This document shows positions 5,901 through 64,000 of a stretch of 64,000 nt of DNA, one piece after another. The notes beneath the pieces were generated by a model. That model had not been told where the DNA came from. It did not search any database and saw nothing but the letters and a program-made list of their open reading frames with translations. Source of the DNA: Thermoplasmata archaeon (GTDB lineage: Archaea; Thermoplasmatota; Thermoplasmata; RBG-16-68-12; JAGMCJ01); NCBI GenBank assembly GCA_046761045.1, contig JBHIFJ010000005.1:2361-66360 (forward strand), in the 5' to 3' direction. The number at the start of each line of letters is the position of its first letter. Position 1 is the stretch's first letter. Position numbers and translations under genes: made by a program.

Positions 5901-6665
5901 AATCTGAGGGCCTGGCTCTTCGGGAACAACTATGAGCACGTCCACATAGAATGGGACCTGTCCACCGATGATGCGACAATGGTGGACCACTACGCGGTGT
6001 ATTACAGCACGACCGGCTACGACCCGGACGGGACGGGGTACAAGTTCCTGGCGGCCTCGCCGAAGGGAATCAACTTCTTCGACCACTATCTGGCGGGGCA
6101 TCTGAATCCGTGGAACATCTTCTACTACGTGCAGGCGAACTACAGCGGCGGTCTGCCCGGAAGGGCGGAGGACCAGGTCGCCAAGTTCACCAGGTGGATG
6201 CCGACCGGCAATGTCCTCCTGTCCTTCCCGCTCAAGATGGTCAACCAGACGATAGAGTACGCGCTCAAGACGGTGAGCTGGGACAGGGCGTGGACCTATG
6301 ATGCGTGGACGGGGCGCTGGATGGAGTACCACATCTGGAAGAATTGGAACGACCTCCTGACGGTGGATCAATCAATGGCGATCTGGGTGAACGTGACATC
6401 GCCCGAACCCGTGACTCACGCGGGTGTGGTGCCGAAGAACTTCACAATCTATCTCAAGGAGGGATGGAACCTCGTCGGGTTCCCCTACGTGCGGTGGGAC
6501 TACACGGTCGACGACCTCGCGACGGAGACGGGTGCCGAGCGGGTGGAGAGCTTCAATGTCGTTGCGCAGCCCTACTACCTGTGGGACCTTCCCGGGCCGA
6601 CATTCATGGCTCCTTGCGAAGGGTACTGGATAAAGGTTCCCGCTGATACTGTTTGGGTGCTCTGA
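3000..6665 (+). CDS. Secreted subtilisin-like serine protease (peptidase S8) with C-terminal FN3-like domains and the shared C-terminal module.
   Basis: N-terminal signal peptide MTKGRLAILLSLILLLTLIPMNTSS. S8 catalytic triad motifs are present: Asp (GFSDTGLDYDHQ), His (HGTMVAGT) and Ser (GTSYSAPDHA). A ctattatag TATA-like box lies 28-36 nt upstream of the ATG. Confidence 0.85.
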   Translation: MTKGRLAILLSLILLLTLIPMNTSSTQGDIIDVRISISPEQLDALASYHIIEEYESFVVVSITSDEVEELTARGFDVEVEDLHRIGIRGFSFDSRDGEPPIPEELRTSGYPSGDGYYIVQFHGPVKEEWKTSLQRAGAEILSYVPSNAFLVRTRTGISSLSEVQAVQWVGLFQPAYKIAPELASSSGTFEAEIITFRPEGVNSVVNALPQASVLYSYRGKDFGRVDARLNRDQLVKVANLVDVHFIQERQVPQVLNSRMQWIMQTNVNGNRRVWDMGIRGEGQLVGFSDTGLDYDHQFFREDAGTIQSGDIYNVTDMTRRKLVRYWVHGDPTDEWSWKDSPNRYDPGAGWATLGHGTMVAGTFGGNDDPMGSSDNDGGAKAAKIFFQDIGSVDMRGGVRRDSLKYIPSDYDNLFGPAYDAGARVHSNSWGSSTSVYTFEAQMVDEFMWNHPDMLIVFSNGNGGPTSWFQYDVASPATAKNALSSGSGQTSPNQDSVAGYSSRGPTSDGRRKPTVTAVGEGVSSMSTGDPKDNTNTAWESSWAGTSYSAPDHASLAAMARQYFTEGWWPTGTKIPGDAFNPSAALLKAVLAASGQQMTGSFSDSKSEDTWPNNSQGWGRVLLDDALHFTGDTRRMELVDETLGLSTGESNIESYFVLDSGEPLRVMLAWTDHPGVAWTTPNLVNDLDLLVTDPTGNTYKGNVFGTMAQGESQPNTGSYDRLNVLEGVHIKNPAVGAWTVEVIAHDVPNGPQPYALVALGDLGTGYGQVFLDQTVYGDGDTIGITVRDTGPTSINVTIWSTTEPGPEVVSLTETSPGSGRWVGNINTTLGFPSPDGQLQVSDGDLVTVQYDDMNPIHTSTDTATIDGSYPIIFNIFVINVTSTTADVIWSTNEPTDSRVYYNKSDPLILQEFVGAYRTQHDVLLTGLEPQTTYRFDVESSDPYGHTVVENNGGMHYEFTTLKPMPEPPTNLRAWLFGNNYEHVHIEWDLSTDDATMVDHYAVYYSTTGYDPDGTGYKFLAASPKGINFFDHYLAGHLNPWNIFYYVQANYSGGLPGRAEDQVAKFTRWMPTGNVLLSFPLKMVNQTIEYALKTVSWDRAWTYDAWTGRWMEYHIWKNWNDLLTVDQSMAIWVNVTSPEPVTHAGVVPKNFTIYLKEGWNLVGFPYVRWDYTVDDLATETGAERVESFNVVAQPYYLWDLPGPTFMAPCEGYWIKVPADTVWVL

Positions 6666-6708
6666 GTTCTCATCGTGTGCCTTCCCTGCAACATGATTCT
6701 CCTCATGA

Positions 6709-8529
6709 TTACAGAACGCCAAACAGGAACGAGGAGGCCAGGAAGGACAGGGAAAAGATGAGGGTTGCCATAGGAATGGCCCTCCCGATTGCTCTCATGA
6801 GTTCCGGACGGTCACCGCCCTGTAGCCCTTCAACGAGATAACTGGCCACCGCCGAATTGCAGAAGAGGAGGCCTCCAAGTATGAGGATGAACGAACTGAG
6901 ATTGGAGGACTGAGAGAACCTTTCCATCAGCAGCGACATCGAAGCAGTCACTCCGAGAACAAGTGGAGAGAAGAAGGTCGTGGTGTTGCGCAATGTCTGA
7001 ATGGTCGGCCTGATTTCGTCTCGTGCATTCTCCTCAATCCTCGACACCTCCTTCAGATTGGAGGAGATGTGCTTCGCTATCCTCCCTGCAAGAGCAGGGT
7101 CCTTCTCGGCAATACTGAATATCATCCTCAGATTCGAGGTGACACCCGTCCCTGTGGGCGCTAGACTGTCAACCAGTGCTGTCCCCACATCGGACTTGCC
7201 CCTTGACAAGTGATATAGAGCCTGAGCGAACTTACCCGACAGCTCCGTTCCCTCCATCTTTCTCCCGGTCTTCAAGAGAGCGGTCTCAGGAGGCTCGCCT
7301 GCCAAGAGGAATCTGCCCAGGTGCTCAGCCGCTTCGGGGAATTCCCTCGCGAGTTTGGACGAGTCACCGCCGTGTCTAGACCTTCCCGCCCAAAGCATGG
7401 AGAATGATATCAGGAGCGAGGAGAAGGCGAGAATCGCGAGGAATGCATATGGGGTTTCGATGTGCCATATCACGACGACGGCCACGAGAAGGGAAATGGT
7501 AGCGAGAAGGGCCAGAACTGGCGGGAGTACATCTGAGAGCTCCAACGGCCGGGCGGTCCTCGAGGGAATGGGCCTTCCGGACAGCACCTCCCTGCAATAG
7601 AGGAGCATGAATAGCGGGAAGGCGACGTCTAGGATGACTGCTACCAGGCCGGGATGGAGACCGTTGGCTTGGCGCCCTTCGATGTTCTCGTCAGCAAGCC
7701 CAATCGGACTCGCGAGAGCCAAGGATGACATCGGCAGAAAGGAGGCGATCATCACTGGGAGCACTATCCCAAGCGCGAAGACGACACTGATGGGTGCCTT
7801 GAGGGAGAAAAGGAATCGCCGAAGCTTTCTCCTTGTGTGAGCGTGAATGGCCGAAAGCAAGAAGCCCAGATCATCCCCGGAACTCTCCTCCACGGCTCCA
7901 GACAGGCTCAACATTGCCTCCCCAAATCCCCTGTTCCTGTCTTTCCATTTCCTGGCATAGCTCACGAATTCCTCTGGCAGGCTCCTGCCTTTCAGATAGA
8001 CAAGCCACAGTAGCCGCTCAAACCCAACCTTGACTTCACCACGAGAGTTCCTGGAGACGGCCAAGACCGCATTCTCGTGTGAAAGCGCTTCTCCAGCGCC
8101 TCCTATCATGTGGCTCATGACCTCGGGGGCCTCTCTGAAGGATGATTTCTGCATCGCTACGGCAAGTCCTCTTGGAAAGGAGACGACCGTCCTACTGAGA
8201 ATGAAGGCGAGCGTGACCACGAGAACGAGGACAATTGGATGAGCTTGAGCCAGGACGAGAGCAGGAAGGAGGACCAGAGAGAGCATGAATGCCAAACGTC
8301 CGCCCGATAGGACCTCCTCGGACCGCAGCCCGAGTCCAGCAAAGAGGATGTCATCTTCGAGTTCCATTCTGTCAGCCTCCATCATCCGCCGTAGCCTGCT
8401 TCTCGGGTCCTCAGTGGGTCTCTCGGATCGTGGCCAAATCGGTCCTATGCACCTCCTACAACGCAGGGGTCCCAGCATGGAATGAGCGAATCTGCAGTAC
8501 CTCGTGAACATCTCACCTCGACTAGGCAT
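6709..8529 (-). CDS. FlaJ/TadC-like polytopic membrane platform protein of a type IV pilus / archaellum-type assembly system.
   Basis: 606 aa with many hydrophobic segments and T2SS-F-like architecture. It lies immediately downstream of the FlaI-like ATPase, with an 8-nt overlap typical of flaI-flaJ operons. Confidence 0.7.
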   Translation of the reverse strand: MPSRGEMFTRYCRFAHSMLGPLRCRRCIGPIWPRSERPTEDPRSRLRRMMEADRMELEDDILFAGLGLRSEEVLSGGRLAFMLSLVLLPALVLAQAHPIVLVLVVTLAFILSRTVVSFPRGLAVAMQKSSFREAPEVMSHMIGGAGEALSHENAVLAVSRNSRGEVKVGFERLLWLVYLKGRSLPEEFVSYARKWKDRNRGFGEAMLSLSGAVEESSGDDLGFLLSAIHAHTRRKLRRFLFSLKAPISVVFALGIVLPVMIASFLPMSSLALASPIGLADENIEGRQANGLHPGLVAVILDVAFPLFMLLYCREVLSGRPIPSRTARPLELSDVLPPVLALLATISLLVAVVVIWHIETPYAFLAILAFSSLLISFSMLWAGRSRHGGDSSKLAREFPEAAEHLGRFLLAGEPPETALLKTGRKMEGTELSGKFAQALYHLSRGKSDVGTALVDSLAPTGTGVTSNLRMIFSIAEKDPALAGRIAKHISSNLKEVSRIEENARDEIRPTIQTLRNTTTFFSPLVLGVTASMSLLMERFSQSSNLSSFILILGGLLFCNSAVASYLVEGLQGGDRPELMRAIGRAIPMATLIFSLSFLASSFLFGVL

Positions 8530-10153
8530 ATCCTGCCCTCACGTCAATCTGTCTTTTCCATCGTTCCAGCAGGTCCTCGCCAGAGTAGCCCTTCTCTGTG
8601 AGTGACAAGAAAACGGAGTTGGCTAGCGATTGGAACTTCGCTGAGAGGACGCGACTCCCCAGTTTCCTTGCGAGACTGGCCACGTACCTCTTGCATTCCG
8701 CCCTCAAGTGGATACTCTCAAGGGCCTCCGCGTAACTCATTCCCCAGGAGTTCGCAATCTCCCGTATCCTTTGTGAGTCAGAGAGGAGGCTCTCGGTTTC
8801 GATGAGCGAGTCTCTCGAGATGCTGTAGTGCATGAGCTGCAGGAAGCTACCATCGCAGGACTCCTTGTTGAGCTCAGAGATCTCGATTACTCTTCGTCTA
8901 GGATTCAGGGTCCCTCGAGGCCTCAGAAGTCCGGCCACGATGACGATGTCAGTCGCTGAGAAGGACTGAGGAGGGATGCCGAGATCGTGGACCACCCGCT
9001 CATAAACACTTCTGGAGGAGCTCCCGTGTATCGTCCCGAGAACCGCCGAGCCAGCCGTCCCGACACGCATCGCCTCGTAAAGAGTCCGAGCCTCTCTGCC
9101 TCTCACCTCTCCGAGGACTATTGCAGACTCTCCGAGGCGCAACGAGACCCTGAGCGCTTCATCTGCCGTCGTTTCGCTCCCGGAGATTCCTGAGCATACG
9201 TAGAGGCTCTGGACCTTGTATCCGAGTTTCCTGAGCTCCGCGCAGGGCAACTCCAGCGTGTCCTCAATCGTCAGAATTCTCTGGCTTGTCGGGAATTCGA
9301 ACATCATAGCCCCGAGGAGCGATGACTTCCCCGCCCCGCGACTGCCCGTCACCAGGATTGTTGAGTTACCATCCATCAGGAAAGAGATGAGGCCGGCCGC
9401 AAGAGGTGTCATACTTCTGTGATAGACCAATCTCGTCAGGGTCCACGGGTCAGACGAGTGTCTGCGCAAGGCAAGAGCGATGCCATCCGGACTGAGTGGG
9501 GGACGCACGGCTGTCAGTCTTGCGTTCATGTCTCCCAAGTCCATCTCAAGAACGGGATTCCTCTCCGAAAACGGCCTCTTGCTCATGAGGAGGAGTTTCG
9601 AGACTATGTTCTTGAGACCTCCCTCATCCATGCGAATGTTGGAAACGCACTTCTGGTGAAATCTGTGCTCTCCGGCGTGTGCAACCGTGAGGTGTATGGG
9701 GACCATCTCGCATGGTGCATCTAAGAAGATGTCCTGGACGTTTGGGTCCGAGAGAAGAATCTCGAGGACTCCGAATCCCACGGAATTCCTCTCAATCATC
9801 TCAGCAAGATGGCGTGCCCTCATCATACGCTCGGCCTTTGCCATGGTTCTGGGCAGACGAAGGGCTATGAGGTCACTCGCCCGATTCTTCACGTAGCGCC
9901 TGACCTGCGAAAGATTCCCCAGATCGAGGATATCAGGCGGGATAGACCATATCTCCTCCACGACCTCCCAGAGAAGCGAGAGCTCGTCTTCCTTCACCTC
10001 GGATGAGGGTGGTGAAAGCCAGTACAGGAAGTCGGTCGAGTTGTCCATCTGATAGATGCTTATGCGTGATTCACCGACGGAGTAGCTCATGACGGCTTCA
10101 AGGTCAGGAGGGTCGCCTAGTATCCAAAAGGAGCTGAAGAAGGGTCTCCACAT
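8522..10153 (-). CDS. FlaI/TadA/VirB11-family secretion ATPase (type IV pilus or archaellum assembly ATPase).
   Basis: Walker A box ILVTGSRGAGKSSLLGAMM followed by an Asp box (RILTIEDTLEL). The size of 543 aa is typical of archaeal FlaI. Confidence 0.85.
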   Translation of the reverse strand: MWRPFFSSFWILGDPPDLEAVMSYSVGESRISIYQMDNSTDFLYWLSPPSSEVKEDELSLLWEVVEEIWSIPPDILDLGNLSQVRRYVKNRASDLIALRLPRTMAKAERMMRARHLAEMIERNSVGFGVLEILLSDPNVQDIFLDAPCEMVPIHLTVAHAGEHRFHQKCVSNIRMDEGGLKNIVSKLLLMSKRPFSERNPVLEMDLGDMNARLTAVRPPLSPDGIALALRRHSSDPWTLTRLVYHRSMTPLAAGLISFLMDGNSTILVTGSRGAGKSSLLGAMMFEFPTSQRILTIEDTLELPCAELRKLGYKVQSLYVCSGISGSETTADEALRVSLRLGESAIVLGEVRGREARTLYEAMRVGTAGSAVLGTIHGSSSRSVYERVVHDLGIPPQSFSATDIVIVAGLLRPRGTLNPRRRVIEISELNKESCDGSFLQLMHYSISRDSLIETESLLSDSQRIREIANSWGMSYAEALESIHLRAECKRYVASLARKLGSRVLSAKFQSLANSVFLSLTEKGYSGEDLLERWKRQIDVRAGYA

Positions 10154-19299: not shown

Positions 19300-19830
19300 A
19301 GAGGGCTGTGAATAATAGCTTCTGACCACTGTTTTGTGAAGGGATTTTGACCCATCCTTTCCGTACCAGTTGACCAGCGATTATCAGAAGGGAGGGGAGA
19401 GGTTCCTCAGAGCGGACAAGGAGTTCTTGGCTAAGATTCCTACAAGAGGACGTACGTCTACGGATACAATATCCATGTTGTCATAGATGTGGAGACCTGT
19501 CCTCCGGCATGCGTATCCGTCACGAAGGCAGGATATGGAGAATCGAGAACACTGAGACCCTTCGTGGATCTCATCGATTCGAGATATCCAATCAAAGTGG
19601 AGAAGTGAGTTGCGGATAACAGATATGATGGAAATCCCAATCGGCTACACATGATAGGCCAGCTTGGAGCGATTCCATACATAGAGCTCAATCCATGGAG
19701 CTGCAAAGGAAATGGTGAGAGGGAAAGAATGGCAAGAAGAAAGAAGCTCTGCGGGAGATTCTACAAGAAGGATGGATTCACGAGTACTGGGTGGATCCCG
19801 ATGGTGATTCCTTCCACAATGTCTTGAATT
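19300..19830 (+). pseudogene. Degraded IS5/IS4-family DDE transposase (pseudogene with an in-frame stop and an upstream frameshift).
   Basis: Frame translation of 19435-19827 reads SYKRTYVYGYNIHVVIDVETCPPACVSVTKAGYGESRTLRPFVDLIDSRYPIKVEK*VADNRYDGNPNRLHMIGQLGAIPYIELNPW.... The G(Y)xIHxxVD and ADxxYD motifs with an IPY tail are typical of IS5/IS4 transposases. Upstream, another frame reads ...KIPTRGRTSTD. The surrounding ~1.3 kb is visibly lower in G+C. Confidence 0.55.
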
Positions 19831-20323
19831 CAAGCACATGCAATGAGCAGACATTTCCCGTAACGAGAGAATCCCTGGACCCAGCTAGATTCAGACATCG
19901 TGGTATTGTATGGGCAACCGCTCATGCAATCCTCATGTGCATGAGTATGCTCGTCGCTGTAAATGCGGCTATCGCGGTTGGAAAGCCAGACATGATGAGA
20001 TGCATCAAGTGCTTCGGGCTGTGATCCATTCCATCATAGGATTAGCTCTCTCTCAGCGGAAGCTATACATGGCTTTCATCAATTCATATGGATAGAAGAC
20101 TTCCCCACATCATCCTGCTCACAAGAGATGCGGCAGATTATGATTTGCTGACATACGGCAACGGAGAGGAGAACGGCAAAGAGCCCTCCTGTGAATTACT
20201 CACAGACGTCTCCAAAGAGTAAACTATATAAGGAAACCTTCAATTGAGATTCCGGAGGAGAGATTCGAGAGCTCCACTTCCAACCTTGGATGAAAGCTCG
20301 AGAGAACGAGTTGGAGGTTTGAC

Positions 20324-22492
20324 ATGAGAAGACGCAGCCTCGCGGCAGTGATTCTCATATTCCTGGGCACATTTTCGCTTGCTTTCTCGCTCCTGCCTGA
20401 TAGCGCTCAGGCCATCACACACTATGTAGGTGGAGGTGGCCCCGGCAACTACACAACGATACAAGCCGCCGTTAATGCTGCCAACGCCGGTGACATCATC
20501 TATGTCTTCGGCGGAACGTACAGCGAAAACGTCATTGTATCCAAGTCACTATCTCTAATCGGAGAGGACAAGCAAGCAACCATAATCGACGCGGGTTCCA
20601 CCGGTAGCGCGGTTACCATAACGTCCGATTCAGTCAACATTTCTGGATTCACTCTGACGAACAGCGGGTCACTTGCCGGAGATGCTGGAGTGATTCTAGA
20701 TTCAGTGCATTACTGCACCATCACCGATGTCATCACGACTGGCAACACCGATGGTATCTTCCTATTCTCCTCGGGAACAAACACAATATCCCTCGTTGAG
20801 ACATACTCGAATTTCTGGAGTGGAATAGTGACGATGTTTTCAAGCAGCAACGTCATAGATAGGAACAATGTCCATTCCAACTTCTTCGGAATCACTCTGG
20901 ACCGCTCAAGTAGCAATAAGGTGCGCTGGAACAACGTGACAGACAACTTCAATCAGATTACCCTTTCTGGTGACTTCGCTAATGTCATAGCATATAATAA
21001 CATCTCAGACGGTTCACGCGGCATATGGCTCGATGATTCAGAAAACGCCATAATCAAGGAAAACAACATCTCCTCCCACACTCTCGTGGGCATACGATTT
21101 CAAGCCTCCCTTACGGCAACGCTGACAGGCAATGCGATGGTCGAGAACGGAATCCATATAGAGGGGGACTCAGTGCAGTACTGGAACACTCACGATATCG
21201 ATGATTCCAACACCGTGAATGGTAAGCCCGTCTACTATTGGAAGGATGCAACGGGTGGCATGGTCCCGTCAGACGCGGGTCAAGTGATATTGGCAAACTC
21301 CGCGAATGTGATAGTCCAAAATCAGAATATCACGAATACCACGACAGGAATTCAGCTGGGGTTCTCGTCAGGTAACACGATCGCGAACAACACGATTTGG
21401 TACAGCAACAATGGCATCCATATGGCATCGTCAGCGGGGAACTGGGTATACCACAATGACTTCTTCTTCAACTCGGCACAGGCCTACGACGGTGCCCAGA
21501 ACAACATTTGGGATAATGGCTATCCATCAGGCGGAAACTACTGGTCCGATTACGCAGGTCTTGACCAGTTTTCAGGACCCAACCAGGATCAACCTGGAAG
21601 TGACGGCATAGGCGATACCCCTCGCACCATAGACGCTGCCGACGAGGACAGATACCCCTTGATGTCTCCGTACTCGACTTCCGTACCCCCTGAGCCGCCG
21701 ACACTGCTATTTGTCAATCTGAGCGGCAAGGACTGGGAGAATGTCACGCTTACATGGTCACTATCCCCTGATGACGGATCTGGACTGGAATCCGTAGTCG
21801 GCTACAGGATCTATAGGAATGTGAGCTATAATCCTCAAGGACTGGGTTACTCACTCATCGCCACTCTTCCGAATCAGACTTCTGTCTTTGTCGACAACCT
21901 GTCTGGTGAAGGAGATCCAAGCGATTACTTCTACAGGGTTTGTGCTTTTGACGGATACGGAAAGGCGGGCTGCTCTGACGATCAAGCCGCTAAGTTCACC
22001 CGCCCACTTGCACAGGGGCCGAACCTGGTCTCCGTTCCTCTCATCCAATCCAACGAGTCCATAGAGGCCGTTCTCCGAACAGTCGATTATGACGAAACGT
22101 GGTACTACGACTCCTCCTCCCAAGAATGGAAATGGTACATGGCCTCCAAGGGCTACAGGAGAGGACTGTGGAACATGGATCACACAATGGGACTATGGGT
22201 GAACGTTACGGGCGACTGCAACCTCACCGTGGCAGGAATCGTTCCCAGCCAGACCACGATGTCCCTACGCGAGGGATGGAATCTCGTGGGGTTCCCTTCT
22301 TTCAATGCATCCTATGCTGTTTCGGACTTGAAGGCCGAAGTGGGAGCAGTGAGGGTGGAGGGATACATCTCCATGCCTCCATTCACGCCGTACATGTTGG
22401 AAGTTCTCGGCGATGGGGTGGCACTTGGGGCGGGATTCGGGTACTGGGTGAAGGTGGTGTCGGATATTGTTTGGGTACTCGATGCGATCTAG
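20324..22492 (+). CDS. Secreted right-handed parallel beta-helix (NosD/pectin-lyase-fold) surface protein with a C-terminal FN3-like domain and the shared C-terminal module.
   Basis: Signal peptide MRRRSLAAVILIFLGTFSLAFSLLPDSAQA. Repeated ...N.I..N... beta-helix rungs follow ITHYVGGGGPGNYTTIQAAVNAANAGDIIYVFGGTYSE. The C-terminus TLTWSLSPDDG...YRIYR...AKFTRPLAQG...GYWVKVVSDIVWVLDAI completes the match. Confidence 0.8.
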   Translation: MRRRSLAAVILIFLGTFSLAFSLLPDSAQAITHYVGGGGPGNYTTIQAAVNAANAGDIIYVFGGTYSENVIVSKSLSLIGEDKQATIIDAGSTGSAVTITSDSVNISGFTLTNSGSLAGDAGVILDSVHYCTITDVITTGNTDGIFLFSSGTNTISLVETYSNFWSGIVTMFSSSNVIDRNNVHSNFFGITLDRSSSNKVRWNNVTDNFNQITLSGDFANVIAYNNISDGSRGIWLDDSENAIIKENNISSHTLVGIRFQASLTATLTGNAMVENGIHIEGDSVQYWNTHDIDDSNTVNGKPVYYWKDATGGMVPSDAGQVILANSANVIVQNQNITNTTTGIQLGFSSGNTIANNTIWYSNNGIHMASSAGNWVYHNDFFFNSAQAYDGAQNNIWDNGYPSGGNYWSDYAGLDQFSGPNQDQPGSDGIGDTPRTIDAADEDRYPLMSPYSTSVPPEPPTLLFVNLSGKDWENVTLTWSLSPDDGSGLESVVGYRIYRNVSYNPQGLGYSLIATLPNQTSVFVDNLSGEGDPSDYFYRVCAFDGYGKAGCSDDQAAKFTRPLAQGPNLVSVPLIQSNESIEAVLRTVDYDETWYYDSSSQEWKWYMASKGYRRGLWNMDHTMGLWVNVTGDCNLTVAGIVPSQTTMSLREGWNLVGFPSFNASYAVSDLKAEVGAVRVEGYISMPPFTPYMLEVLGDGVALGAGFGYWVKVVSDIVWVLDAI

Positions 22493-29171: not shown

Positions 29172-30806
29172 CTATGGAACGTCACCGATTCCATCGCTGC
29201 CCGGCTGGTCCTGGTTCGGCCCGCTCTTGTTGTCGGTACCGTTGTAGTCGCTCCAGTAGTTGCCGCCCGAAGGATAGCCGTTGTCCCATTCATTGCTTCC
29301 ACTGTCATCGAAGGCCTGAAGCGTGTTGTCAATGAGGATATTGTGATAGATGCGATTTTGAGAACTATCTTCGTGAGCATGAATGCCACGCTCATTGTCC
29401 GAGATGTTGTTGCTAGCGATGATATTGTCGTTGCTGAACTCGTCGAGGTAGATTCCTGCAAAGTAGTTGTCCGAGACCGTATTATTGATGACAGTGTTGT
29501 CATCCGATTCGACAATAAGGATTCCCCTCCAGATGTTCGAAGAAGCGTTGTTGTATGTGACGGCATTGTTATGGCTGGATTGACGGAGACTTATCCCGTA
29601 ATAGCCGGATGAAGCGGCGCTGCTATTCGTCACAGTATTGTTGTCGGAGTTATAGAAGACGATGCCACCGTAATCGTTCCACGAGGCGGTGTTATTAGCA
29701 ATCACGCTTCTCGATGAAAAGCCAAGCTCGATTCCCAGGGAGCCGGTGCTCACATTCAGATTCTCGACCACTACATCCGAGCAATTGGCGAGTATCACTT
29801 GACCGGCGTCAGCGGGAATGTATCCGCCCACTGTGTTCTTCCAATAATACACCGGTTTCCCGTTCACAGTGTTAGAGGTCTCAATGCTATGGCTATTCCA
29901 ATGCTCAAGAAAGCCAGACATGAACATTCCATCCTCAACGAGGGCATTGTCGGAGATCGTGCTATTGAAGGAGTGCGAGATAGTGATGCCAAACCTTCGA
30001 TTCCTGGAGATGAAGTTGCTGATCGCGGTTGTGTTTTCCGAGGCGAATATGTCCAATCCAAGATCGTTGTAGGAGATGTTGTTCTCGGCAACCACATTTC
30101 CCACGGAGAAGTCAACCATAATGCCGGCGCTATTGTTCGAGGCGGTGTTGTTGCGTACTGCATTGTTGTGGGAGCCAACGAGGTAGATGCCTAAGACGTT
30201 GTCGCTCGCGGAATTATTGACAATGGTGTTGTTACTTGAGTACGTGAGTTGGAGACCCTTCTCGCCGTTGGAAGGGAGTTTGCTGTTTACCACGCGGCAG
30301 TTTTCGACATAGTACAGTTCCACTGCGGAATCCCCTGGAGATGATCCGCTGTCCTTTACGGTAAACCCTGTGATGTTCACCCAATCGGCAGTCACGTAGA
30401 TTACGTCTCCAGTTCCGGTGCCATTGACTGACGTAGTGTCTCTGTCCACATCGGCCAGGGAAAGGGGCACATCTATCGTGATGTGTTCGTAATACGTGCC
30501 GTTGTATACGTAGACGGTATCGCCAGGATTCGCGTCGTCGATTGCGCCCTGAATCGTCGTGTAGTTTCCAAAGCCAATCCCGCCTACATACAGTGTGGTT
30601 GCCCCGACATTTTCAGGGAGGAATGTCAGAGTGAGGAAATAGGCACTCATGAATACAAGAAGTGCGACGATGTAGGCCACGTTCTTCATATTCTCCTCCG
30701 CATGGTCACCGCTGCAGCTGTGTTTGCGCCTATAATTCTTCTTGCGGAAGCTTCTCTTTCCCCCTAAAGAAATGTCGTCCATCCCTATGAGGAACGACAT
30801 TTCCAC
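29172..30806 (-). CDS. Parallel beta-helix (NosD-like) surface protein, N-terminal 544 aa, terminated by an in-frame amber codon.
   Basis: TTLYVGGIGFGNYTTIQGAIDDANPGDTVYVYNGTYYEHITI and many beta-helix rungs. It is paralogous to 20324..22492. Confidence 0.7.
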   Translation of the reverse strand: MEMSFLIGMDDISLGGKRSFRKKNYRRKHSCSGDHAEENMKNVAYIVALLVFMSAYFLTLTFLPENVGATTLYVGGIGFGNYTTIQGAIDDANPGDTVYVYNGTYYEHITIDVPLSLADVDRDTTSVNGTGTGDVIYVTADWVNITGFTVKDSGSSPGDSAVELYYVENCRVVNSKLPSNGEKGLQLTYSSNNTIVNNSASDNVLGIYLVGSHNNAVRNNTASNNSAGIMVDFSVGNVVAENNISYNDLGLDIFASENTTAISNFISRNRRFGITISHSFNSTISDNALVEDGMFMSGFLEHWNSHSIETSNTVNGKPVYYWKNTVGGYIPADAGQVILANCSDVVVENLNVSTGSLGIELGFSSRSVIANNTASWNDYGGIVFYNSDNNTVTNSSAASSGYYGISLRQSSHNNAVTYNNASSNIWRGILIVESDDNTVINNTVSDNYFAGIYLDEFSNDNIIASNNISDNERGIHAHEDSSQNRIYHNILIDNTLQAFDDSGSNEWDNGYPSGGNYWSDYNGTDNKSGPNQDQPGSDGIGDVP

Positions 30807-48153: not shown

Positions 48154-48227
48154 GCCCGAGTGGGGTAGCTTGGATATCCTAGAAGCCTGCGGAGCTTCGG
48201 ACCCGGATTCAAATTCCGGCTCGGGCA
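48154..48227 (+). tRNA. tRNA-Arg (anticodon GCG). CCA is not encoded.
   Basis: Hand-folded as follows. Acceptor GCCCGAG/CTCGGGC. D-stem GGGT/ATCC with a GG-containing D-loop. Anticodon stem GAAGC/GCTTC with loop CTGCGGA. Variable loop GGAC. T-stem CCGGA/TCCGG with T-loop TTCAAAT. Discriminator A. There are 2 nt between the D and anticodon stems, so the exact boundaries need tRNAscan. Confidence 0.7.
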
Positions 48228-48617
48228 CTGCTATCCCTTGGGCTTGTGGAAGCGACACGCAGAGGGACTGAATGAGTGGCTCGAGAAGCTGGAAGGACCT
48301 TGGCAGGCTGCTTGCCGTGACCTTGGCAGTGGGGACACTCCTGGTCGACGTCGCGTATTGGGCGGCGGCGGTCGATATCTCTCCGAGCGGTTCCTGCGAT
48401 AATTGGCCCTGTTCGCCTGCCGGTCGATATCTCCCTTGGCCATGGAAGCCCGAGGTGTGCGCACCCGTAGTCACGCCGATGGATGCGGTCGACAGTGCCA
48501 TCTGCCAGCTCGCCAAGACAGGTTTGATTGTTCCTCTGATAGCTGGCGATGTCGCACTTCTCGCATGGATTGGGCATAGGCTGGGGAGGATTGTTGAACC
48601 CAAACGAAAGCGGGATC

Positions 48618-56859: not shown

Positions 56860-57107
56860 TTCATCAGAGATTCCGTGCTACTGGAATAATAAGGTTTGCA
56901 TGCGCATGCCGTGTTGGATGATTCCCAGATACCGCTCTCGACCGAGCGGACCGAAACCTTTTTCTGGAGCAAAGCGGATAGAAGGGAAGTCCCTTAGTGG
57001 ATTTCTCGGAACCTGGAGGGATCGTGGTCACGCGAGGGAGGTGGAGATTGATGATTGGAATCCCAGATGTGTTGAGCGGAAGGCATAGTGGAATTTTGCG
57101 CCTGCGA

Positions 57108-60100
57108 ATGTGGAAGATCGCTCCTGTGACCGTCGTTCTGGCTCTCGTCTCAGTCTCTTTTGGGACCTTTGCATGGTTCGACGACGTGGAGAGCGGCGTG
57201 AACGGCTGGACTCACTACTGGATCAGTGGGACATCGATACCAGACGACTGGAGCATCTCTTCTGTCAGATGGCACAGTGCGAGCAACAGCTGGTACAGCG
57301 GAGGAGAGGTGGCAAACTGGGTGAACGGCGGAGACACGGCTCTGCAGAGCCCCACCATAGACCTCACCAACGCGACTGCGTCCTACCTCAATTTCTGGCA
57401 CTGGTATGACTTCGACTATTCGACGGGCTTCTATCCTGATGGAGGGATAGTTGAAATCGATGCCGGATCAGGCTGGCAGCAGATATTCCCGGTAGGGGGA
57501 TATCCGTACGTGATCGATACGGGTTACGACAACCCGCTCGAAGGCCGTCAGGCCTTCGCGGGACCCCAGTCGTTCTGGGAGTACGAGACCTTCGACATCT
57601 CTGCCTACGTTGGTGGCGTCGTTTCGATTCGCTTCCATGTGGGCTGGGACTACGGCACTCTTGGCCTGAAGGAGGGATGGTATATTGATGACATCGAGAT
57701 CACAAACGCCACTCTTCCCCAGCACGACATAGGCGTCAGTGCTCCGGGTGTCCCAGGCAGGGTCGATCCAAACACGAACGTCACGGTTGGCGGCACAGTC
57801 AGAAACAATGGCATATCCGATGAGACGAACGTCACGGTGAATCTGACCGTCGACGGCGCCCTCGTGGATAATACGACAATCGGATTCCTGCAGAACGGAA
57901 CAGCGGCGGCTGTGACGATGTATTGGACGCCCGTAATAGAGAAGACCTATAATGTGTGCCTGGAGGCAACACCGGTTCCTGGAGAGACCTCACTGACCAA
58001 CAACAAGAACTGTGTCGACGTCGATGTCAGCTCCATAAAAGGTTCGGTCCTCATTGATCAGACGCACGGAACGGACAATGCCTCTGCCTACAGCATCCTG
58101 ATAGCGGATCTCATCGCAGAGGGTTACGAGTTACACTATCAATTCACGACCCCAATAACACCTGCCGACCTCTCTGGCCACGACGTCCTGATGATTCCCC
58201 AGCCCTTCCAGTCCTACTCGGCCTCGGAGCTGTCCGCGATTCAGGCGTTCGTCTCTTCGGGAAGCGGCCTCCTCGTGCTCGGTGATGATGATCCTCCCGT
58301 TTTCACGGACCTCACCTCGTTTTCCGGAATCTCCTGGATCAGCGGAGGCACGAGCGGCACAACGACCTCGATAACGCCGCACCAGATCACGACAGGCATC
58401 ACCATGATAGACCTGTCCAGTCCTCTGTGCGAGATGGTCATATCTGGATCGGCAATCAGCCTGATCAGGGATTCGGGCGGAGGACACGCCCTTGCCGTAT
58501 CCACGTCTCCCGGAAGAGTCGCGGGTTTCTCGGATGAGAGTTCCCTCATGGACTTCGGAATCACCTCGGCAGACAATGAGCAGCTGGCGCTTAACGTAAT
58601 AGAGTGGTTGCTTGGTGTGACCTATGACCACGATGTGGCCGTCACCAACTTCAATGCTCCGGGGTTCGTAAACCCGGGAGTGAGTTTCTATGTCAATGCA
58701 ACCATCAAGAATCTGGGATTGAACAACGAGACCAACCTGACCGTGGAATTCAATGTGAACTCCGTGCTGGAGGACAATATCTCCATCCCTCTCCTGGCTT
58801 CCGGCGCCTCGCAGGACGTGAGCTTCACTTACGTGACGACGATCGAGGGTTTCTATGAGGTCGAGATATTCGTTCAGCCCGTGCCCTCCGAGAATTTCAC
58901 GGGCAACAACTGGGTCAAGCAGACGGTCTTCGTTGGCTACGCGACCATCGTGGGAATCTATGACCATGGTTTGACGGGCGACATATCATACTTCTTCGGT
59001 GGCAATTCGAACCTCTACTCGACCTTCCAGGCGATCCTCGATACCGATCCTTTGAACAGGTTTCAGACCACGGTAATCACAGATCTCTCTTCGTCCACTC
59101 TGTCCTCCATTGATGTCCTTCTGCTTCCGGACAACGCTGTTCCAGACGTCTATCTCACCGATGTCGCGAGCTTCTTCAACAATCGAAAGGGAATAGTGGC
59201 TGTGGACAGCGCGGTCTGCTACCTGGCCTATTCTGGCCTCCTCTGGTCCGGAGCTGCTGGGACGAACGGATACGGGGTCTATTGGGACTACAACAGCTGG
59301 TTCAATGACCAGAAAATCCTGATGGGTCACGAGATAACGGCCGACTACATCGTGGGAAACGTGTACAGTTCGGAAAGCGGGGAGGCTAGCTTGTATCTGA
59401 GCATGCTGCCAGGAGATGCGTTGGCCTTGACCGGAAGTCAAGTCTCTTCGACCTATGCCTACACTGTTGCCCGCGAGGAATTCGGCAGCGGCAGGATAGT
59501 TGAACTCGGTCCATTCGCCGACTTCACCTTGCCCACGGACCTCTACGAGATGGTGAGGGACGCCGTACAATGGACAGCTGGTGCGATTCCGGTGGACCAC
59601 GATATTGCCGTCTCCTACTTCCAGCTCCCGCCGCACATTCAACCGAACGACAACGTGACGATTGATGTGGACATAAAGAATGCTGGATTGAACAACGAGA
59701 CCAACATCGAGGTGAATTTCACCATCGACGGAGTGCTAGCGGACCAGAAGTACATATCCTTCATGTCCCCCGGTCAAGTGGACTCGCTGACGTTCTTCTG
59801 GGTTCCCACGGTGGAGAAGACCTATGATGTCTGCGTGCAGGTGTCACCGATACCAGATGAGAACATAACCGTGAACAACCAGGTCTGCAAGTCCGTCAAT
59901 GTCAGGAAGGTCCTGGCATTTCTGTTGTTCGACCAGACCCACGGTTGCATATCAATGTCCTCCTATGCGTCTCTGAGAGGGGTCCTGACCTCGCTCGGAT
60001 ACGTTGTGGACACCCTCTTCGCTACGCCCCTCACCGCCACTGACCTCTCAGGGTACGATGTCTTCATCCTGCCAGAACCCGACTTCTCATACTCTTTCTC

Positions 60101-61898
60101 CGAGAGAGGCGTCATGCAGAGCTTCGTGAGCTCGGGACATGGCCTCCTTCTCATGGGCGACTCCGGAACATCGACGTATGATGATATCACATCATTTGCC
60201 GGCATCAATTGGATGTTCGGCGGGTCTTCTGGTACGACGTTCGACATTACGCCGCACGACGTGACGGAAGGAGTGAGTTCAGTCTACATCCCCGCCCCTG
60301 CACGGGAGCTCATTGTGACCTCACCTGCAATCAGCCTCGTCCGAGATACATCGGGCGGTCACATCCTCGCGGTGTCCGATTCGCCAGGACGTGTGGCAGC
60401 ACTCTCGGATGAGGATCCATTCGACAATTTTGCCCTCAATATGTCTGACAACCAGAAACTTGCGGTCAATCTCATCGATTGGTTGGTGGGCAGGAGATGG
60501 GAACACGACATAGAGATCAGAGAGCTCAGCGTTGTCTCTCCGATGGAGAGATGGGTCCCGCAGACCGTGAAGGCAAAGGTCCGAAACGTTGGCCTCAACG
60601 ATGAGTACAACATAACGGTGAGACTGCTCTTCGACGGTGTCGAGGTGAGCAGTCAGGTGATTTCACAGCTGCAGGTGGACTCCATCGAGTGGGTCTCCTT
60701 AGGATTGGTCCCGTCCACCATCGGCACGTTCGATCTTGCCGTCGTGGTCGCTCCCATACCGGATGAGAATGAGACAGACAACAACATCATCGAGACGCAG
60801 GTGTCCGTGCAGGACACGACGCCTCCTGATACACCGGTCAATCTCCAAGTGACCAACGCCCAGGACCCGACGGCTCTGGAGCTCTCATGGACGCCCAACA
60901 CCGAGCTGGACCTCGCGTTCTACACCGTATACGCGAGCGTTGATGGTGCGAACTACTACTTCGAGGCGCAAATCCCCGCGCCGTCCTCCAACTATACGGA
61001 CACGGGACTCCTGCCCGGTAGCAAGTACTACTACCAGATAACTGCAAGTGACGATATCCCGAATGAATCGCCAATGTCCAGTCCTGCGGTCGGGATCCCA
61101 GGCACGGACCACGACAACGACGGAATCATCGATATCTTTGACCCGGATGACGACAACGACGGTGTTCCTGATGAACGGGATGATTTCCCGTGGGACCCTG
61201 ACGAGTGGAAAGACACTGACGGCGATGGTATCGGGGACAACGCGGACGATGATGATGACGGCGATGGCGTCCCCGACGACGAGGATGCCTTCCCAAGCAA
61301 CCCGGATGAGATCAGGGACTCGGACCTCGACGGTATCGGAGACAACATGGACCAAGACGATGATGATGACGGCGTTCCGGACTCCAACGACCCCTATCCG
61401 TTCGATCCGAGCGAGTGGAGAGATACTGACGGCGATGGTATCGGGGACAACGCGGACGATGATGATGACGGCGATGGCGTCCCCGACGACGAGGACCTGT
61501 ACCCGCTCAATCCCGAGGAATGGATGGACTCTGATGGCGATGGTATCGGGGACAACATGGATCCGGACGACGACAATGATGGAGTTCCGGACTATCGTGA
61601 TGACTTCCCGCTTGACCTGAATGAATCCAGGGATCTCGATGGCGATGGTATCGGGGACAACGCGGACGATGATGATGATGGAGACGGCATACCCGACACC
61701 ACGGATCCCAATCCACTGGTTCCCAATGTTGGCGACGGAATCGCCCTCGGCGGCCTGGAGACGCTTGTCTCCTTGGCAATCGCCCTCCTCGCCGTGCTCA
61801 TTGCCACCTGTATTATCGCCATTCTGTATTTCCGCAGAAGAGGAGAGGGTCCCAGTTCCACGGAACAACGCGAGGAGGAAGAACTCAAGGAGGAATAG
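57108..61898 (+). CDS. Giant modular surface protein. Domains in order: signal peptide; N-terminal beta-sandwich domain; 4 x [CARDB domain + ~200 aa class-I-GATase/DUF4350-like domain]; an FN3-like domain; ~10 thrombospondin type 3-like Ca-binding repeats; a C-terminal TM anchor.
   Basis: Start at MWKIAPVTVVLALVSVSFGTFA. CARDB-like units begin HDIGVSAPG, HDVAVTNFNAPG, HDIAVSYFQLPP and HDIEIRELSVVSP. The recurring module is IDQTHG...DLSGHDV(L/F)(M/I)(I/L)P(Q/E)P.... The TSP3 consensus is D.DGDGIGDN.DDDDDGDGVPD. The C-terminal helix is LVSLAIALLAVLIATCIIAILYF followed by RRRGEG. Confidence 0.8.
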   Translation: MWKIAPVTVVLALVSVSFGTFAWFDDVESGVNGWTHYWISGTSIPDDWSISSVRWHSASNSWYSGGEVANWVNGGDTALQSPTIDLTNATASYLNFWHWYDFDYSTGFYPDGGIVEIDAGSGWQQIFPVGGYPYVIDTGYDNPLEGRQAFAGPQSFWEYETFDISAYVGGVVSIRFHVGWDYGTLGLKEGWYIDDIEITNATLPQHDIGVSAPGVPGRVDPNTNVTVGGTVRNNGISDETNVTVNLTVDGALVDNTTIGFLQNGTAAAVTMYWTPVIEKTYNVCLEATPVPGETSLTNNKNCVDVDVSSIKGSVLIDQTHGTDNASAYSILIADLIAEGYELHYQFTTPITPADLSGHDVLMIPQPFQSYSASELSAIQAFVSSGSGLLVLGDDDPPVFTDLTSFSGISWISGGTSGTTTSITPHQITTGITMIDLSSPLCEMVISGSAISLIRDSGGGHALAVSTSPGRVAGFSDESSLMDFGITSADNEQLALNVIEWLLGVTYDHDVAVTNFNAPGFVNPGVSFYVNATIKNLGLNNETNLTVEFNVNSVLEDNISIPLLASGASQDVSFTYVTTIEGFYEVEIFVQPVPSENFTGNNWVKQTVFVGYATIVGIYDHGLTGDISYFFGGNSNLYSTFQAILDTDPLNRFQTTVITDLSSSTLSSIDVLLLPDNAVPDVYLTDVASFFNNRKGIVAVDSAVCYLAYSGLLWSGAAGTNGYGVYWDYNSWFNDQKILMGHEITADYIVGNVYSSESGEASLYLSMLPGDALALTGSQVSSTYAYTVAREEFGSGRIVELGPFADFTLPTDLYEMVRDAVQWTAGAIPVDHDIAVSYFQLPPHIQPNDNVTIDVDIKNAGLNNETNIEVNFTIDGVLADQKYISFMSPGQVDSLTFFWVPTVEKTYDVCVQVSPIPDENITVNNQVCKSVNVRKVLAFLLFDQTHGCISMSSYASLRGVLTSLGYVVDTLFATPLTATDLSGYDVFILPEPDFSYSFSERGVMQSFVSSGHGLLLMGDSGTSTYDDITSFAGINWMFGGSSGTTFDITPHDVTEGVSSVYIPAPARELIVTSPAISLVRDTSGGHILAVSDSPGRVAALSDEDPFDNFALNMSDNQKLAVNLIDWLVGRRWEHDIEIRELSVVSPMERWVPQTVKAKVRNVGLNDEYNITVRLLFDGVEVSSQVISQLQVDSIEWVSLGLVPSTIGTFDLAVVVAPIPDENETDNNIIETQVSVQDTTPPDTPVNLQVTNAQDPTALELSWTPNTELDLAFYTVYASVDGANYYFEAQIPAPSSNYTDTGLLPGSKYYYQITASDDIPNESPMSSPAVGIPGTDHDNDGIIDIFDPDDDNDGVPDERDDFPWDPDEWKDTDGDGIGDNADDDDDGDGVPDDEDAFPSNPDEIRDSDLDGIGDNMDQDDDDDGVPDSNDPYPFDPSEWRDTDGDGIGDNADDDDDGDGVPDDEDLYPLNPEEWMDSDGDGIGDNMDPDDDNDGVPDYRDDFPLDLNESRDLDGDGIGDNADDDDDGDGIPDTTDPNPLVPNVGDGIALGGLETLVSLAIALLAVLIATCIIAILYFRRRGEGPSSTEQREEEELKEE
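61130..61720 (+). repeat. Tandem coding DNA repeats (~72 to ~216 bp units) that encode the TSP3-like Asp-rich calcium-binding repeats.
   Basis: Near-identical 75-nt copies (gatactgacggcgatggtatcggggacaacgcggacgatgatgatgacggcgatggcgtccccgacgacgagga) occur at ~61207 and ~61423. Further degenerate copies lie at ~61520 and ~61640. Confidence 0.7.
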
Positions 61899-61924: not shown

Positions 61925-64000
61925 ATGAGAGGAACCGCTGTGATGCTGCTCTTCCTGATGTCATTGATGTCCGGGCTCCAGCTTCCGTCGGTGGAGGCCT
62001 TGGGGAATGGTGTCGTTGAGCCGCCGGTACTCGTTCCGGAGGCAGGGCCAGACCAGACGATCACGGAGGGAGATATCGTGGTCCTGGACGGAACCGCATC
62101 CTACGTGATCAATGGCACACTGGACGAATACTACTGGGACTTCGATGCGCTCGTGGACTCAGACCAAGACGGCAACTTCACAAATGACAAGGACGCCGCC
62201 GGAGCGGTGGTTCCGCATAGGTTTGGTGATGACGGGGACTACACAGTGACCCTGACGATAGGCTCGGATGTTCTCGGGACAGAGGAGGGTCTGGTCGCTC
62301 AGGACACGGTTCTCATGATAGACAGCTCCGGTAGCATGGGGAGCAATGACCCCCTGGAGAAGAGGCAGGAAGCGGCAACGGACTACCTCTACCTGATGGG
62401 GGAGAATGATAGCGCCGCGGTGGTCGTGTTCGGCAGATTTCCACCGCAGCCTGACCCCAATCCGTGCAGTCATGCGGCCTGGCTGGTCTATGACAAGCAC
62501 CTGACCACGACAGACGCGTACGGAAAGGCTCAGGTGAAGGGTGCGATTGACTATACGAGGTTCGACACGGGGATGACGAACATAGAGAAGGCCATTCAGA
62601 TCGGACACATGGAGCTCATTTCGGGCTACTCGCCGACTCCGACGGAGCTATCCGATTGCTCGCCGGGCTTCCCGGAGCCGCGTGGGAACGCGAAAGAGGA
62701 TCACGCTTGGGTGGAGATTCTGCTGACGGACGGATTGCCCACTCACTCGCTCTCTGCAACTACAGATGAGATTCAGATCGCCGCCTATGTGGGAATCAGG
62801 ATCTTCACAATAGGACTTGGATCGGGAGTGGATGAGGACTATCTGGAGGACATCGCATACGAGACAGGCGGGAGATACTACTTCGCTCCGACTGCCGGTG
62901 ATCTTCAGGAGATCTACACCAACATCTCCAAGGTCGTCAAGACTATCATTGGCGGCACGATATACGCCTCGGACAGTCTCACGGTCCATGTTGAGAATGC
63001 CGCCCCTCAGCTCGACCTGCAGACGAGCGGGACCGCGGGGGAGGGAAGTCCCGTTGAATTCTGGGTCAATGTGACCGACCCAGGGAGCGATGACATACAC
63101 CTGCTCTACGAATGGGGCACCGGGGCCGGAAACGAGACGTGCGATTACCTGAACAGCCCGCCGGATCCGGATCCCTATCCGAGTCCAGAGGTCAACCCAA
63201 GGGACATCTCGGAGAGGAGAATCCACACCTACGGGGACAATTGGAACTACAGTGTGGTCGTGACCACCTGGGACGATGATGGTGGAGTGACCGTTCGCTC
63301 TGTGGAGGCATCCATCGGGAACTCGCCTCCGGTTCTGAGTCTATCCGTCCCTGCCTCAGCGGACGAAGGCGAAGTCCTCACAGTCCAGGCGTCCGCATCG
63401 GATGAGGGAAGCGATGACCTCACATTCGAATGGTCGTTTGGAGATGGCACTTCGGAGACGATGACGTATTACAACGACGGTGTCGGGCCAGATCCCTTGC
63501 CCAGCCCGGAGGGCACCCATCCTTTCTCGGCCAACGATGTCAGGACCCATGCTTGGGGCGATGATGGTTCCTATGAGATCAGTGTCATTGTGAAGGATGA
63601 TGACGGTGGAATGGCGATTGCCACATCGAGAATCACGATCGCCAATCTTCCGCCAGAGGTCGCCCTTCCATCGGAGATCGTCTTCGACGAGGGCGAGCTC
63701 TTCACGCTCAATGCCGTGGCAATCGACCCAGGGAGCGATGACCTTGTGTTCAACTGGGTTCTGGAGCTCGGACCATCGTTCTCTGCCATCTACTTCAACG
63801 ATGGAGTCGGCCGGGATCCGTTGCTGAGCCCGTGGGGGACCTTCCCGTTCTCGGCCTCGGATGGGATCGCCCACACCTACGGTGATGATGGCCTCTACGG
63901 CATTAACCTGACCGTGATGGATGATGACCGCGCGGTCACGGAAGCTTCGTTCCAGGTGGAGATAAGGAATGTCGCTCCCACTGTCGATGGCGATGGACCA
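61925..64000 (+). CDS. Secreted von Willebrand factor A plus multi-PKD-domain protein (3' end lies outside the window).
   Basis: Signal peptide MRGTAVMLLFLMSLMSGLQLPSVEA. MIDAS motif MIDSSGSMGSND. Four or more PKD-like units follow (YTVTLTI, WNYSVVVTTWDDDGG, YEISVIVKDDDGG, YGINLTVMDDD). The frame is open to nt 64000. Confidence 0.75.
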   Translation, partial: MRGTAVMLLFLMSLMSGLQLPSVEALGNGVVEPPVLVPEAGPDQTITEGDIVVLDGTASYVINGTLDEYYWDFDALVDSDQDGNFTNDKDAAGAVVPHRFGDDGDYTVTLTIGSDVLGTEEGLVAQDTVLMIDSSGSMGSNDPLEKRQEAATDYLYLMGENDSAAVVVFGRFPPQPDPNPCSHAAWLVYDKHLTTTDAYGKAQVKGAIDYTRFDTGMTNIEKAIQIGHMELISGYSPTPTELSDCSPGFPEPRGNAKEDHAWVEILLTDGLPTHSLSATTDEIQIAAYVGIRIFTIGLGSGVDEDYLEDIAYETGGRYYFAPTAGDLQEIYTNISKVVKTIIGGTIYASDSLTVHVENAAPQLDLQTSGTAGEGSPVEFWVNVTDPGSDDIHLLYEWGTGAGNETCDYLNSPPDPDPYPSPEVNPRDISERRIHTYGDNWNYSVVVTTWDDDGGVTVRSVEASIGNSPPVLSLSVPASADEGEVLTVQASASDEGSDDLTFEWSFGDGTSETMTYYNDGVGPDPLPSPEGTHPFSANDVRTHAWGDDGSYEISVIVKDDDGGMAIATSRITIANLPPEVALPSEIVFDEGELFTLNAVAIDPGSDDLVFNWVLELGPSFSAIYFNDGVGRDPLLSPWGTFPFSASDGIAHTYGDDGLYGINLTVMDDDRAVTEASFQVEIRNVAPTVDGDGP

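Follow-up and report, generated by a model that had tools for sequence, protein, structure and literature searches.

The stretch of DNA analysed here (64,000 nt in full, hereafter the window) is part of contig JBHIFJ010000005.1 in the Thermoplasmata archaeon assembly GCA_046761045.1. Near its 3′ end lies a genuine and unbroken gene whose product is a very large surface protein with a membrane anchor; it is followed in tandem by a gene for a protein with VWA and PKD domains. The surface protein alternates Ig-like CARDB domains with domains predicted to adopt the glutamine amidotransferase (GATase)-like fold, above an acidic thrombospondin type 3 (TSP3)-like stalk, and the pairing of the two genes is conserved among relatives. 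The window is placed in an archaeon because of the genes flanking the pair, which encode topoisomerase VI A and B, a DRG-type GTPase, MCM, diphthamide synthase and NMD3. The GC content of the surface protein gene is 0.55–0.57, similar to the remainder of the window.

Gene, start codon and domain architecture

A single uninterrupted open reading frame (ORF) runs on the forward strand from a GTG at 56997 to a stop at 61898 (1633 codons; ORF list and sequence). A sequence-only reading that preceded this analysis gave the protein as 1633 aa starting at 57108; the ORF itself is genuine and the length holds from the GTG, but the ATG at 57108 yields 1596 aa. An identical protein (P0001, 100 % identical, 1600 aa) is present in NCBI with its start at TTG 57096, under the name ‘MAG: CARDB domain-containing protein [Thermoplasmata archaeon]’. 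Starting at ATG 57051 gives 1615 aa plus stop, with the N-terminus MIGIPDVLSGRHSGILRLRMWKIAPV. This is equal in length to, and collinear with, the N-termini (MIRVLE...) of P0003 and P0004, homologues that are 82–84 % identical at the protein level, and GGAGGTGGAG is located just 5′ of the codon. Because of this agreement in length and the preceding GGAGGTGGAG, ATG 57051 is preferred as the best start among 56997, 57051, 57096 and 57108. Residue numbers below nevertheless count from ATG 57108. Signal peptides were judged by hydropathy (Kyte-Doolittle scan) and sequence only. The features of the two genes, with the evidence for each, are as follows.

57051–61898 (+): whole gene as proposed, 1615 aa plus stop (ORF list, homologue N-termini, P0001)
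57051–57179 (+): signal peptide, basic n-region then hydrophobic IAPVTVVLALVSVSFG, hydrophobic residues 3–25 (Kyte-Doolittle scan, sequence)
57174–57716 (+): InhA-like MAM beta-sandwich, membrane-distal tip, residues 23–203 (PF20773)
57717–58040 (+): CARDB 1, Ig-like, residues 204–311 (Pfam CARDB, internal BLAST)
58041–58622 (+): DUF4350/GIFT domain 1, residues 312–505 (Pfam DUF4350, AlphaFold2, Foldseek)
58623–58940 (+): CARDB 2, residues 506–611 (Pfam CARDB, internal BLAST)
58941–59591 (+): ‘MID’, putative divergent GIFT/GATase-fold domain, residues 612–828 (hhalign, AlphaFold2, Foldseek)
59592–59909 (+): CARDB 3, residues 829–934 (Pfam CARDB, internal BLAST)
59910–60497 (+): DUF4350/GIFT domain 2, residues 935–1130 (Pfam DUF4350, internal BLAST)
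60498–60815 (+): CARDB 4, residues 1131–1236 (Pfam CARDB, internal BLAST)
60816–61103 (+): fibronectin type III (FN3) domain, residues 1237–1332 (Pfam fn3, 33.1 bits, E 6.7e-8)
61104–61715 (+): TSP3-like acidic array, predicted Ca2+-binding stalk, residues 1333–1536 (Pfam TSP_3, Tandem Repeats Finder, motif count)
61734–61841 (+): single C-terminal transmembrane (TM) helix, residues 1543–1578 (hydropathy peak 2.95)
61842–61895 (+): cytoplasmic tail, basic then acidic (RRRGEG...EEEELKEE), residues 1579–1596 (sequence)
61925–64000 (+): partner gene, cut by the window end; signal peptide, PKD_4, VWA (DSSGS metal-ion-dependent adhesion site, MIDAS), PKD-like repeats (Pfam, translation, hydropathy)

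The MAM-like beta-sandwich, CARDB, FN3 and TSP3 domains had been called by eye in the sequence-only reading, and all were upheld by Pfam. CARDB (PF07705) matched in four stretches with 135.9 bits (cut-off 22.7, E 6.5e-40), the copies being mutually 29–42 % identical by internal BLAST, and TSP_3 (PF02412) reached 60.1 bits (cut-off 25, E 1.6e-16). The MAM domain (PF20773) scored 31.0 bits scanned alone and 26.1 bits within the whole protein, against a cut-off of 26.9. The order of the domains differs from the four modules of CARDB plus GATase-like domain first described: there are four CARDB domains and three intervening domains of ~200 aa, and CARDB 4 abuts FN3 directly, with no GATase-fold domain between. 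Likewise, instead of ~10 TSP3-like repeats, 12 DxDxDG motifs were counted, arranged in six 35-aa double units with a 105-nt period and a 210-nt super-period (Tandem Repeats Finder). Aspartate and glutamate account for 88 of the 204 residues of this array, and the protein as a whole is strongly acidic (255 D+E vs 56 K+R). Its 23 N-x-S/T sequons compare with 13.7 ± 3.2 expected from shuffles, and 16 are inside CARDB domains. No peptidase domain was found in the protein by Pfam and NCBIfam scans, and a six-frame scan with the hidden Markov models (HMMs) built here revealed no paralogous domains elsewhere in the window.

By hydropathy the protein has an N-terminal hydrophobic segment and one C-terminal TM helix. 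Signal peptide cleavage is predicted near the junction of GTFA with the following W. The single C-terminal TM helix, the RRRGEG tail and the EEEELKEE end of the earlier description were confirmed, with the hydrophobic helix at residues 1543–1578. A sorting-signal anchor (PGF-CTERM, MYXO-CTERM, GlyGly-CTERM or rhombosortase type) was considered and rejected: no NCBIfam sorting-signal model matched and no PGF motif is present. The tail after RRR has 15 residues and is acidic in character, in contrast to the very short basic tail of a sorting signal. NCBIfam matches to MtsC and to a rhombosortase-dependent M36 peptidase were also dismissed, being limited to single domains and far under the cut-offs. 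The protein ends in an ordinary TM anchor and not in a sorting signal.

The sequence-only reading had named repeat collapse, leading to a chimeric ORF, as a threat to the gene itself, and two circumstances speak for such an artefact: the window comes from a metagenome-assembled genome, and the TSP3 array contains a direct exact repeat of 71 nt (61215–61285 and 61425–61495, spacing 210 nt), the longest in the gene. Nucleotide identity between modules is only 48–58 %, however, so collapse of the modules is excluded, and the reading frame is unbroken. Additionally, the same domain order is found in the independent assemblies behind P0003, P0004, P0007 and P0008. The count of TSP3 units alone might be wrong, by multiples of 210 nt, and a wholly artefactual ORF is extremely improbable.

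Fold and conserved residues of the intervening domains

The sequence-only reading had placed a ~200-aa IDQTHG domain in each module; two of the three intervening domains carry IDQTHG and match DUF4350 (PF14258), and the middle one (MID) does not. Within the whole protein DUF4350 was found in two stretches with 46.8 bits (cut-off 30.4, E 5.4e-12). Scanned singly, copy 2 scored 31.7 bits and copy 1 25.7 bits against the same cut-off, and the two copies are 49 % identical to each other by internal BLAST. A profile was built from an alignment of 17 copies from the homologue family described below. Compared with PDB sequences, it matched the GIFT domain of IFT52 (5fms, E 2.5e-5) and site-1 protease (8uwc, E 1.5e-3).

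Structure prediction agrees with these matches. The AlphaFold2 model of copy 1 (pLDDT 96) has as its best Foldseek match the IFT52 GIFT domain (5fmr/5fms, TM-score 0.80–0.84, E 1.7e-10). Further matches are OST48 (6s7t_G), ThuA-like proteins, site-1 protease with SPRING (8uw8/9csd), STM1381 and the GH42 middle domain; true class I amidotransferases were also matched, with lower scores. The GIFT and GATase-like domains that match best in PDB are non-catalytic parts within multi-protein assemblies.

Class I glutamine amidotransferases are recognized by a cysteine at the strand-helix (nucleophile) elbow together with a His-Glu pair, and this combination occurs neither in the DUF4350 copies nor in MID. 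The elbow of the DUF4350 copies is Gly83-Asp84, with no cysteine, and for this reason the copies are placed, on profile and model evidence, in the non-catalytic GIFT/ThuA/DUF4350 branch of the GATase-like fold. The earlier label ‘GATase-like’ was therefore right at the level of fold (AlphaFold2, Foldseek), but the elbow lacks the cysteine and the domains number three, not four. Conservation is nonetheless marked: D8, H11, E65, H116, D146 and N181 are the invariant polar residues among family copies, and D167 is kept in at least 90 %. Relatives outside the family also keep D8, H11, H116, D167, N181, G160-R161 and W191, with E65 and D146 partly retained.

MID is a domain of ~217 aa with no Pfam match even at E≤1, no NCBIfam model and no meaningful match among PDB sequences. 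Its AlphaFold2 model has a pLDDT of 67.7 and a pTM of 0.76, with a low-confidence insertion of ~40 residues, and matches IFT52 GIFT, GH42 middle domain and ThuA-like structures in Foldseek. In hhalign, MID aligned with the DUF4350 profile over 160 columns (probability 86 %, E 5e-6), and the HMM built here from DUF4350 copies overlaps MID-type regions in 26 distant proteins. Profile and predicted fold, the two kinds of evidence available, thus suggest that MID is a divergent domain of the same GATase-fold superfamily as the DUF4350 copies. The MID family is rare: with E≤1e-3 as threshold, an exhaustive HMMER search of 1.84 billion clusters recovered only 195 representatives, and DUF4350/GIFT, CARDB, subtilase and C25 peptidase domains are frequent companions of MID in these proteins.

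The elbow of MID is D89-S90, and S90, H130 and E188 are invariant in the core family. A Ser-His-Glu (S51-like) triad was considered as a feature of the MID family and rejected across ~160 wider family domains, in which D89 is kept in about 90 % and S90 in 84 %, but H130 in only 69 %, and E188 is not conserved. The best-kept positions of the wider family are Y17, G20, N24, D64, N65, D89, G99, W115, Y117 and Y136, a pattern that looks more like a binding site than a catalytic triad.

The VWA-PKD partner, the homologue family and neighbouring genes

The tandem VWA and PKD protein recorded in the sequence-only reading was confirmed by Pfam, which found PKD_4, VWA and PKD domains. Its ATG (61925) follows the stop of the main gene after a gap of 26 nt, with AAGGAGAGG just before the ATG. 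Co-occurrence of the two genes, put forward earlier as a check, was positive: the partner is directly downstream in eight of eight homologues of the FN3/TSP3 type, in three genomic contexts, and the partner orthologues in the seven other loci are 51–82 % identical. The first context comprises L001, L002 and L008, the second L003/L004 and the third the window and L007; the pair is also found in L006, with a 4-nt overlap between its genes, and in L009. The full-length partner was read from the L006 orthologue (4768–7992). Full-length partners (683–1093 aa) have by hydropathy an N-terminal hydrophobic segment only and no membrane anchor. The window partner and five orthologues have the MIDAS motif IDSS[GS]SM, and the 135-aa fragment from L009 stops at IDSS.

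Length variation among partners is accompanied by different inserts. The long versions (1074–1093 aa) have a cysteine-containing, non-PKD insert (YWKFQCEG...EVCDYL...) between PKD repeats, at residues ~795–930 in L006, and the 683-aa partner of L003 carries a different one. Surrounding genes vary as well. In L003 a further CARDB protein of 939 aa (7062–9881) is encoded immediately upstream of the pair, and a phage-type integrase (19641–20831) is located ~2.4 kb downstream of the partner gene. In L001 (21771–23254) and L002 (20839–22469) the pair is followed by a 349–352-aa protein without a Pfam match and by a CPxCG zinc-finger protein; a rhomboid protease and several glycosyltransferases are also encoded after the pair in these two loci.

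About ten full-length homologues of the surface protein were found, and all those with an annotated source come from Thermoplasmata/Thermoplasmatota metagenome bins. A single-protein locus search returned one GTDB representative locus and none in metagenome contigs. The family architecture can be written MAM-(CARDB-[DUF4350 or MID])n-CARDB-FN3-TSP3n-TM, with two to four DUF4350 copies, exactly one MID and 8–21 DxDxDG motifs. The more distant P0009 and P0010 have Ig/PKD domains in place of the FN3/TSP3 stalk. The TM helix and the basic-then-acidic tail are present in all homologues. Outside the family, the N-terminal MAM region is homologous to parts of many secreted peptidases; it is 33–59 % identical to the MAM-like domains of C25, S8, C10 and M6 proteins, and in this respect resembles the InhA/M6-type peptidases, with the difference that the protein described here has no peptidase domain.

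Elsewhere in the window, a 958-aa fn3-containing protein (82–2958, +) and a 1221-aa subtilase (Peptidase_S8; 3000–6665, +) are encoded in tandem. On the reverse strand a T2SSE-type secretion ATPase (8522–10153) overlaps a 606-aa ORF without a Pfam match (6709–8529); the two are possibly an assembly pair for a type IV pilus or an archaellum-like structure. Two NosD/right-handed beta-helix proteins are encoded at 20324–22492 (+) and 29172–30806 (−), and the sole tRNA gene of the window is a tRNA-Arg (GCG) at 48154–48228 (+).

Known systems, proposed function and alternatives

The closest precedent for the locus, one not named in the sequence-only reading, is the arCOG01314 module of Makarova, Galperin and Koonin (2015, PMC5898192), exemplified by TON_1832 and PAB1295. 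arCOG01314 proteins begin with a signal peptide, carry a DUF4350/GldG-like flavodoxin-fold domain outside the cell and end in a single C-terminal TM helix, and these membrane-anchored DUF4350 proteins share operons with secreted Ig-vWA proteins and a MoxR ATPase. The complex was suggested, as a prediction only, to serve in secretion or membrane remodelling, and its neighbourhoods often include predicted S-layer proteins (PMC5898192). arCOG01314 appears in no later paper within the literature searched, and a literature search on CARDB together with TSP3 in archaea found nothing. In layout the present pair is alike, with signal peptide, extracellular DUF4350, single C-terminal TM helix and, in all eight FN3/TSP3-type homologues, an adjacent secreted protein with Ig-like and vWA domains. 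It differs in its enlarged ectodomain, which has three GIFT-fold domains (one divergent), four CARDB domains, a MAM tip, FN3 and a TSP3 Ca2+ stalk. The gene is thus an enlarged variant of the DUF4350-plus-vWA surface module.

The GIFT domains of IFT52, OST48/Wbp1 and GldG, the ThuA-like proteins and the C-terminal domain of site-1 protease share the fold of the DUF4350 copies (Foldseek TM-score 0.68–0.84, E 1e-10 to 1e-7). They all lack the Cys-His-Glu triad, and each belongs to a larger assembly in which it has no catalytic part. Identity to them is only 10–15 %, however, and the domain described here is extracellular, repeated within one chain and marked by a signature of its own (DxxH, H116, GR, D167, N181, W191). 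For GIFT domains, sugar binding or a role in docking has been suggested (Beatson and Ponting 2004, as cited in PMC7226087). Tandem DxDxDG Ca2+-binding motifs are shared with bacterial TSP3 surface proteins, such as Myxococcus MtsC (NF047638), and with thrombospondin/COMP. In the case of MtsC the repeat region alone matches (64.8 bits against a cut-off of 350 bits), and that protein ends in MYXO-CTERM where a plain TM helix is found here; the eukaryotic TSP3 repeats contain Cys pairs, which are lacking here. The protein itself is already deposited with a generic annotation, and MID is the only one of its domain families that was not known before. Besides this family, which has no Pfam model, the novelty lies in the specific architecture and in the conserved pairing without a MoxR gene nearby.

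The analysis shows how the domains are laid out and folded, that they have no catalytic triad, what topology follows from hydropathy, and that the gene pairing is conserved. Beyond this, we infer that the partner docks physically, that Ca2+ is bound, that the protein is glycosylated and that it has an adhesive role. The surface protein would be a type-I membrane-anchored, very acidic and probably N-glycosylated protein, with nearly the whole chain outside the cell because of the Sec-type N-terminus and the single C-terminal TM helix. From the acidic tail outward, the TM helix would be followed by a Ca2+-binding stalk of TSP3-like repeats and FN3, then by a rod of CARDB and GIFT domains and finally by the MAM tip. 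About eleven folded domains and the acidic repeat array make up the chain, with Ig-like CARDB domains alternating in the rod with three non-catalytic GIFT/GATase-fold domains. The gene is probably co-transcribed with that of the secreted PKD-VWA-PKD partner, which has an intact MIDAS and no anchor of its own. The GIFT-fold domains could then provide docking sites by which the VWA partner, perhaps along with glycans, is kept on the cell surface, while the MAM tip and the MIDAS site may bind external ligands. In this manner the pair may mediate attachment to particles, other cells or extracellular matrix. The role as an adhesin or matrix-binding pair, suggested in the sequence-only reading, is plausible, and an anchored scaffold or adhesin whose GIFT-fold domains display the VWA partner in an adhesion or matrix complex is favoured here with slightly better than even confidence.

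Several observations weigh against the docking scaffold. The conserved polar residues of the DUF4350 copies could mark a small-molecule or metal site instead of a protein interface. P0009, a distant homologue with a PKD stalk, has no VWA gene downstream. MoxR/AAA_3 (COG0714), usual in the published module, was not found in the scanned window ORFs of at least 300 aa or in the genes called up to 10 kb away in L001–L003, L007 and L008. Additionally, the family is limited to about 10 metagenome-derived proteins.

Alternatively, the protein could be the membrane-anchored subunit of an arCOG01314-type secretion or membrane-remodelling machine, with MoxR encoded elsewhere in the genome, and not an adhesin. 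The shared layout (signal peptide, extracellular DUF4350, C-terminal TM helix and adjacent secreted protein with Ig-like and vWA domains; PMC5898192) is as expected for such a subunit. However, no MoxR/COG0714 gene adjoins the pair in any context inspected, the long stalk, MAM tip and repeated Ig spacers fit projecting surface fibrils better than compact envelope machines, and the secretion role is itself just a prediction; this alternative is considered unlikely. By analogy with SlaB and SlaA of the Sulfolobales, the two proteins might instead be a structural S-layer-like pair, one forming an anchored stalk and the other an unanchored canopy or lattice. One anchored and one secreted, unanchored protein would suit this arrangement, as would Ig-like CARDB domains and dense sequons, which are typical of archaeal envelope proteins, and the frequent presence of predicted S-layer proteins in arCOG01314 neighbourhoods (PMC5898192). 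Nevertheless, close relatives vary widely in DUF4350 copies (2–4), DxDxDG motifs (8–21) and partner length (683–1093 aa), which is unusual for a lattice protein. With about 10 homologues only, and no similarity to known S-layer families in Pfam and NCBIfam, an S-layer-like role is doubtful.

A different kind of proposal is that the GATase-fold domains are an active surface enzyme array (hydrolase, peptidase or glycosidase), with MID using the elbow Asp-Ser and His130. The invariance of S90, H130 and E188 in the core family and the retention of D89 and S90 across the wider family would be in keeping with catalysis, as would the frequent fusion of MAM and MID to secreted peptidases. The DUF4350 elbow, however, is Gly-Asp, neither Cys nor Ser, and H130 and E188 do not hold in the wider MID family. 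Non-catalytic GIFT, ThuA-like and GH42-middle domains head the fold matches, with no S51 peptidase in the top 50, and conservation in MID is strongest at aromatic, Asp/Asn and Gly positions (Y17, N24, D64, N65, W115, Y117 and Y136), more as in a binding site. An enzyme array is thus regarded as highly unlikely. A bolder extension of the docking scaffold, and one given little credence as a whole, is that MID, as a new member of the GATase-fold superfamily, may bind glycans or act as a hydrolase and, at the same time, the CARDB-GIFT array may be a multivalent docking rail loading several MIDAS-VWA partners, for integrin-like adhesion without MoxR.

The surface proteins of uncultured Thermoplasmata are almost unstudied. 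The locus provides a compact, conserved two-gene case of the link between DUF4350 and vWA that was put forward in 2015, and as no MoxR gene is close by, a direct test of the protein-protein side of that proposal becomes feasible. The GIFT/GATase-like fold, known from IFT52, OST48 and GldG, appears here to be used repeatedly as an extracellular module, and MID adds an uncatalogued domain family without a Pfam model. Should the docking model prove false, the locus would encode an ordinary large surface protein; if it is true, the pair would illustrate a hitherto undescribed means by which archaea display adhesive proteins that have no anchor.

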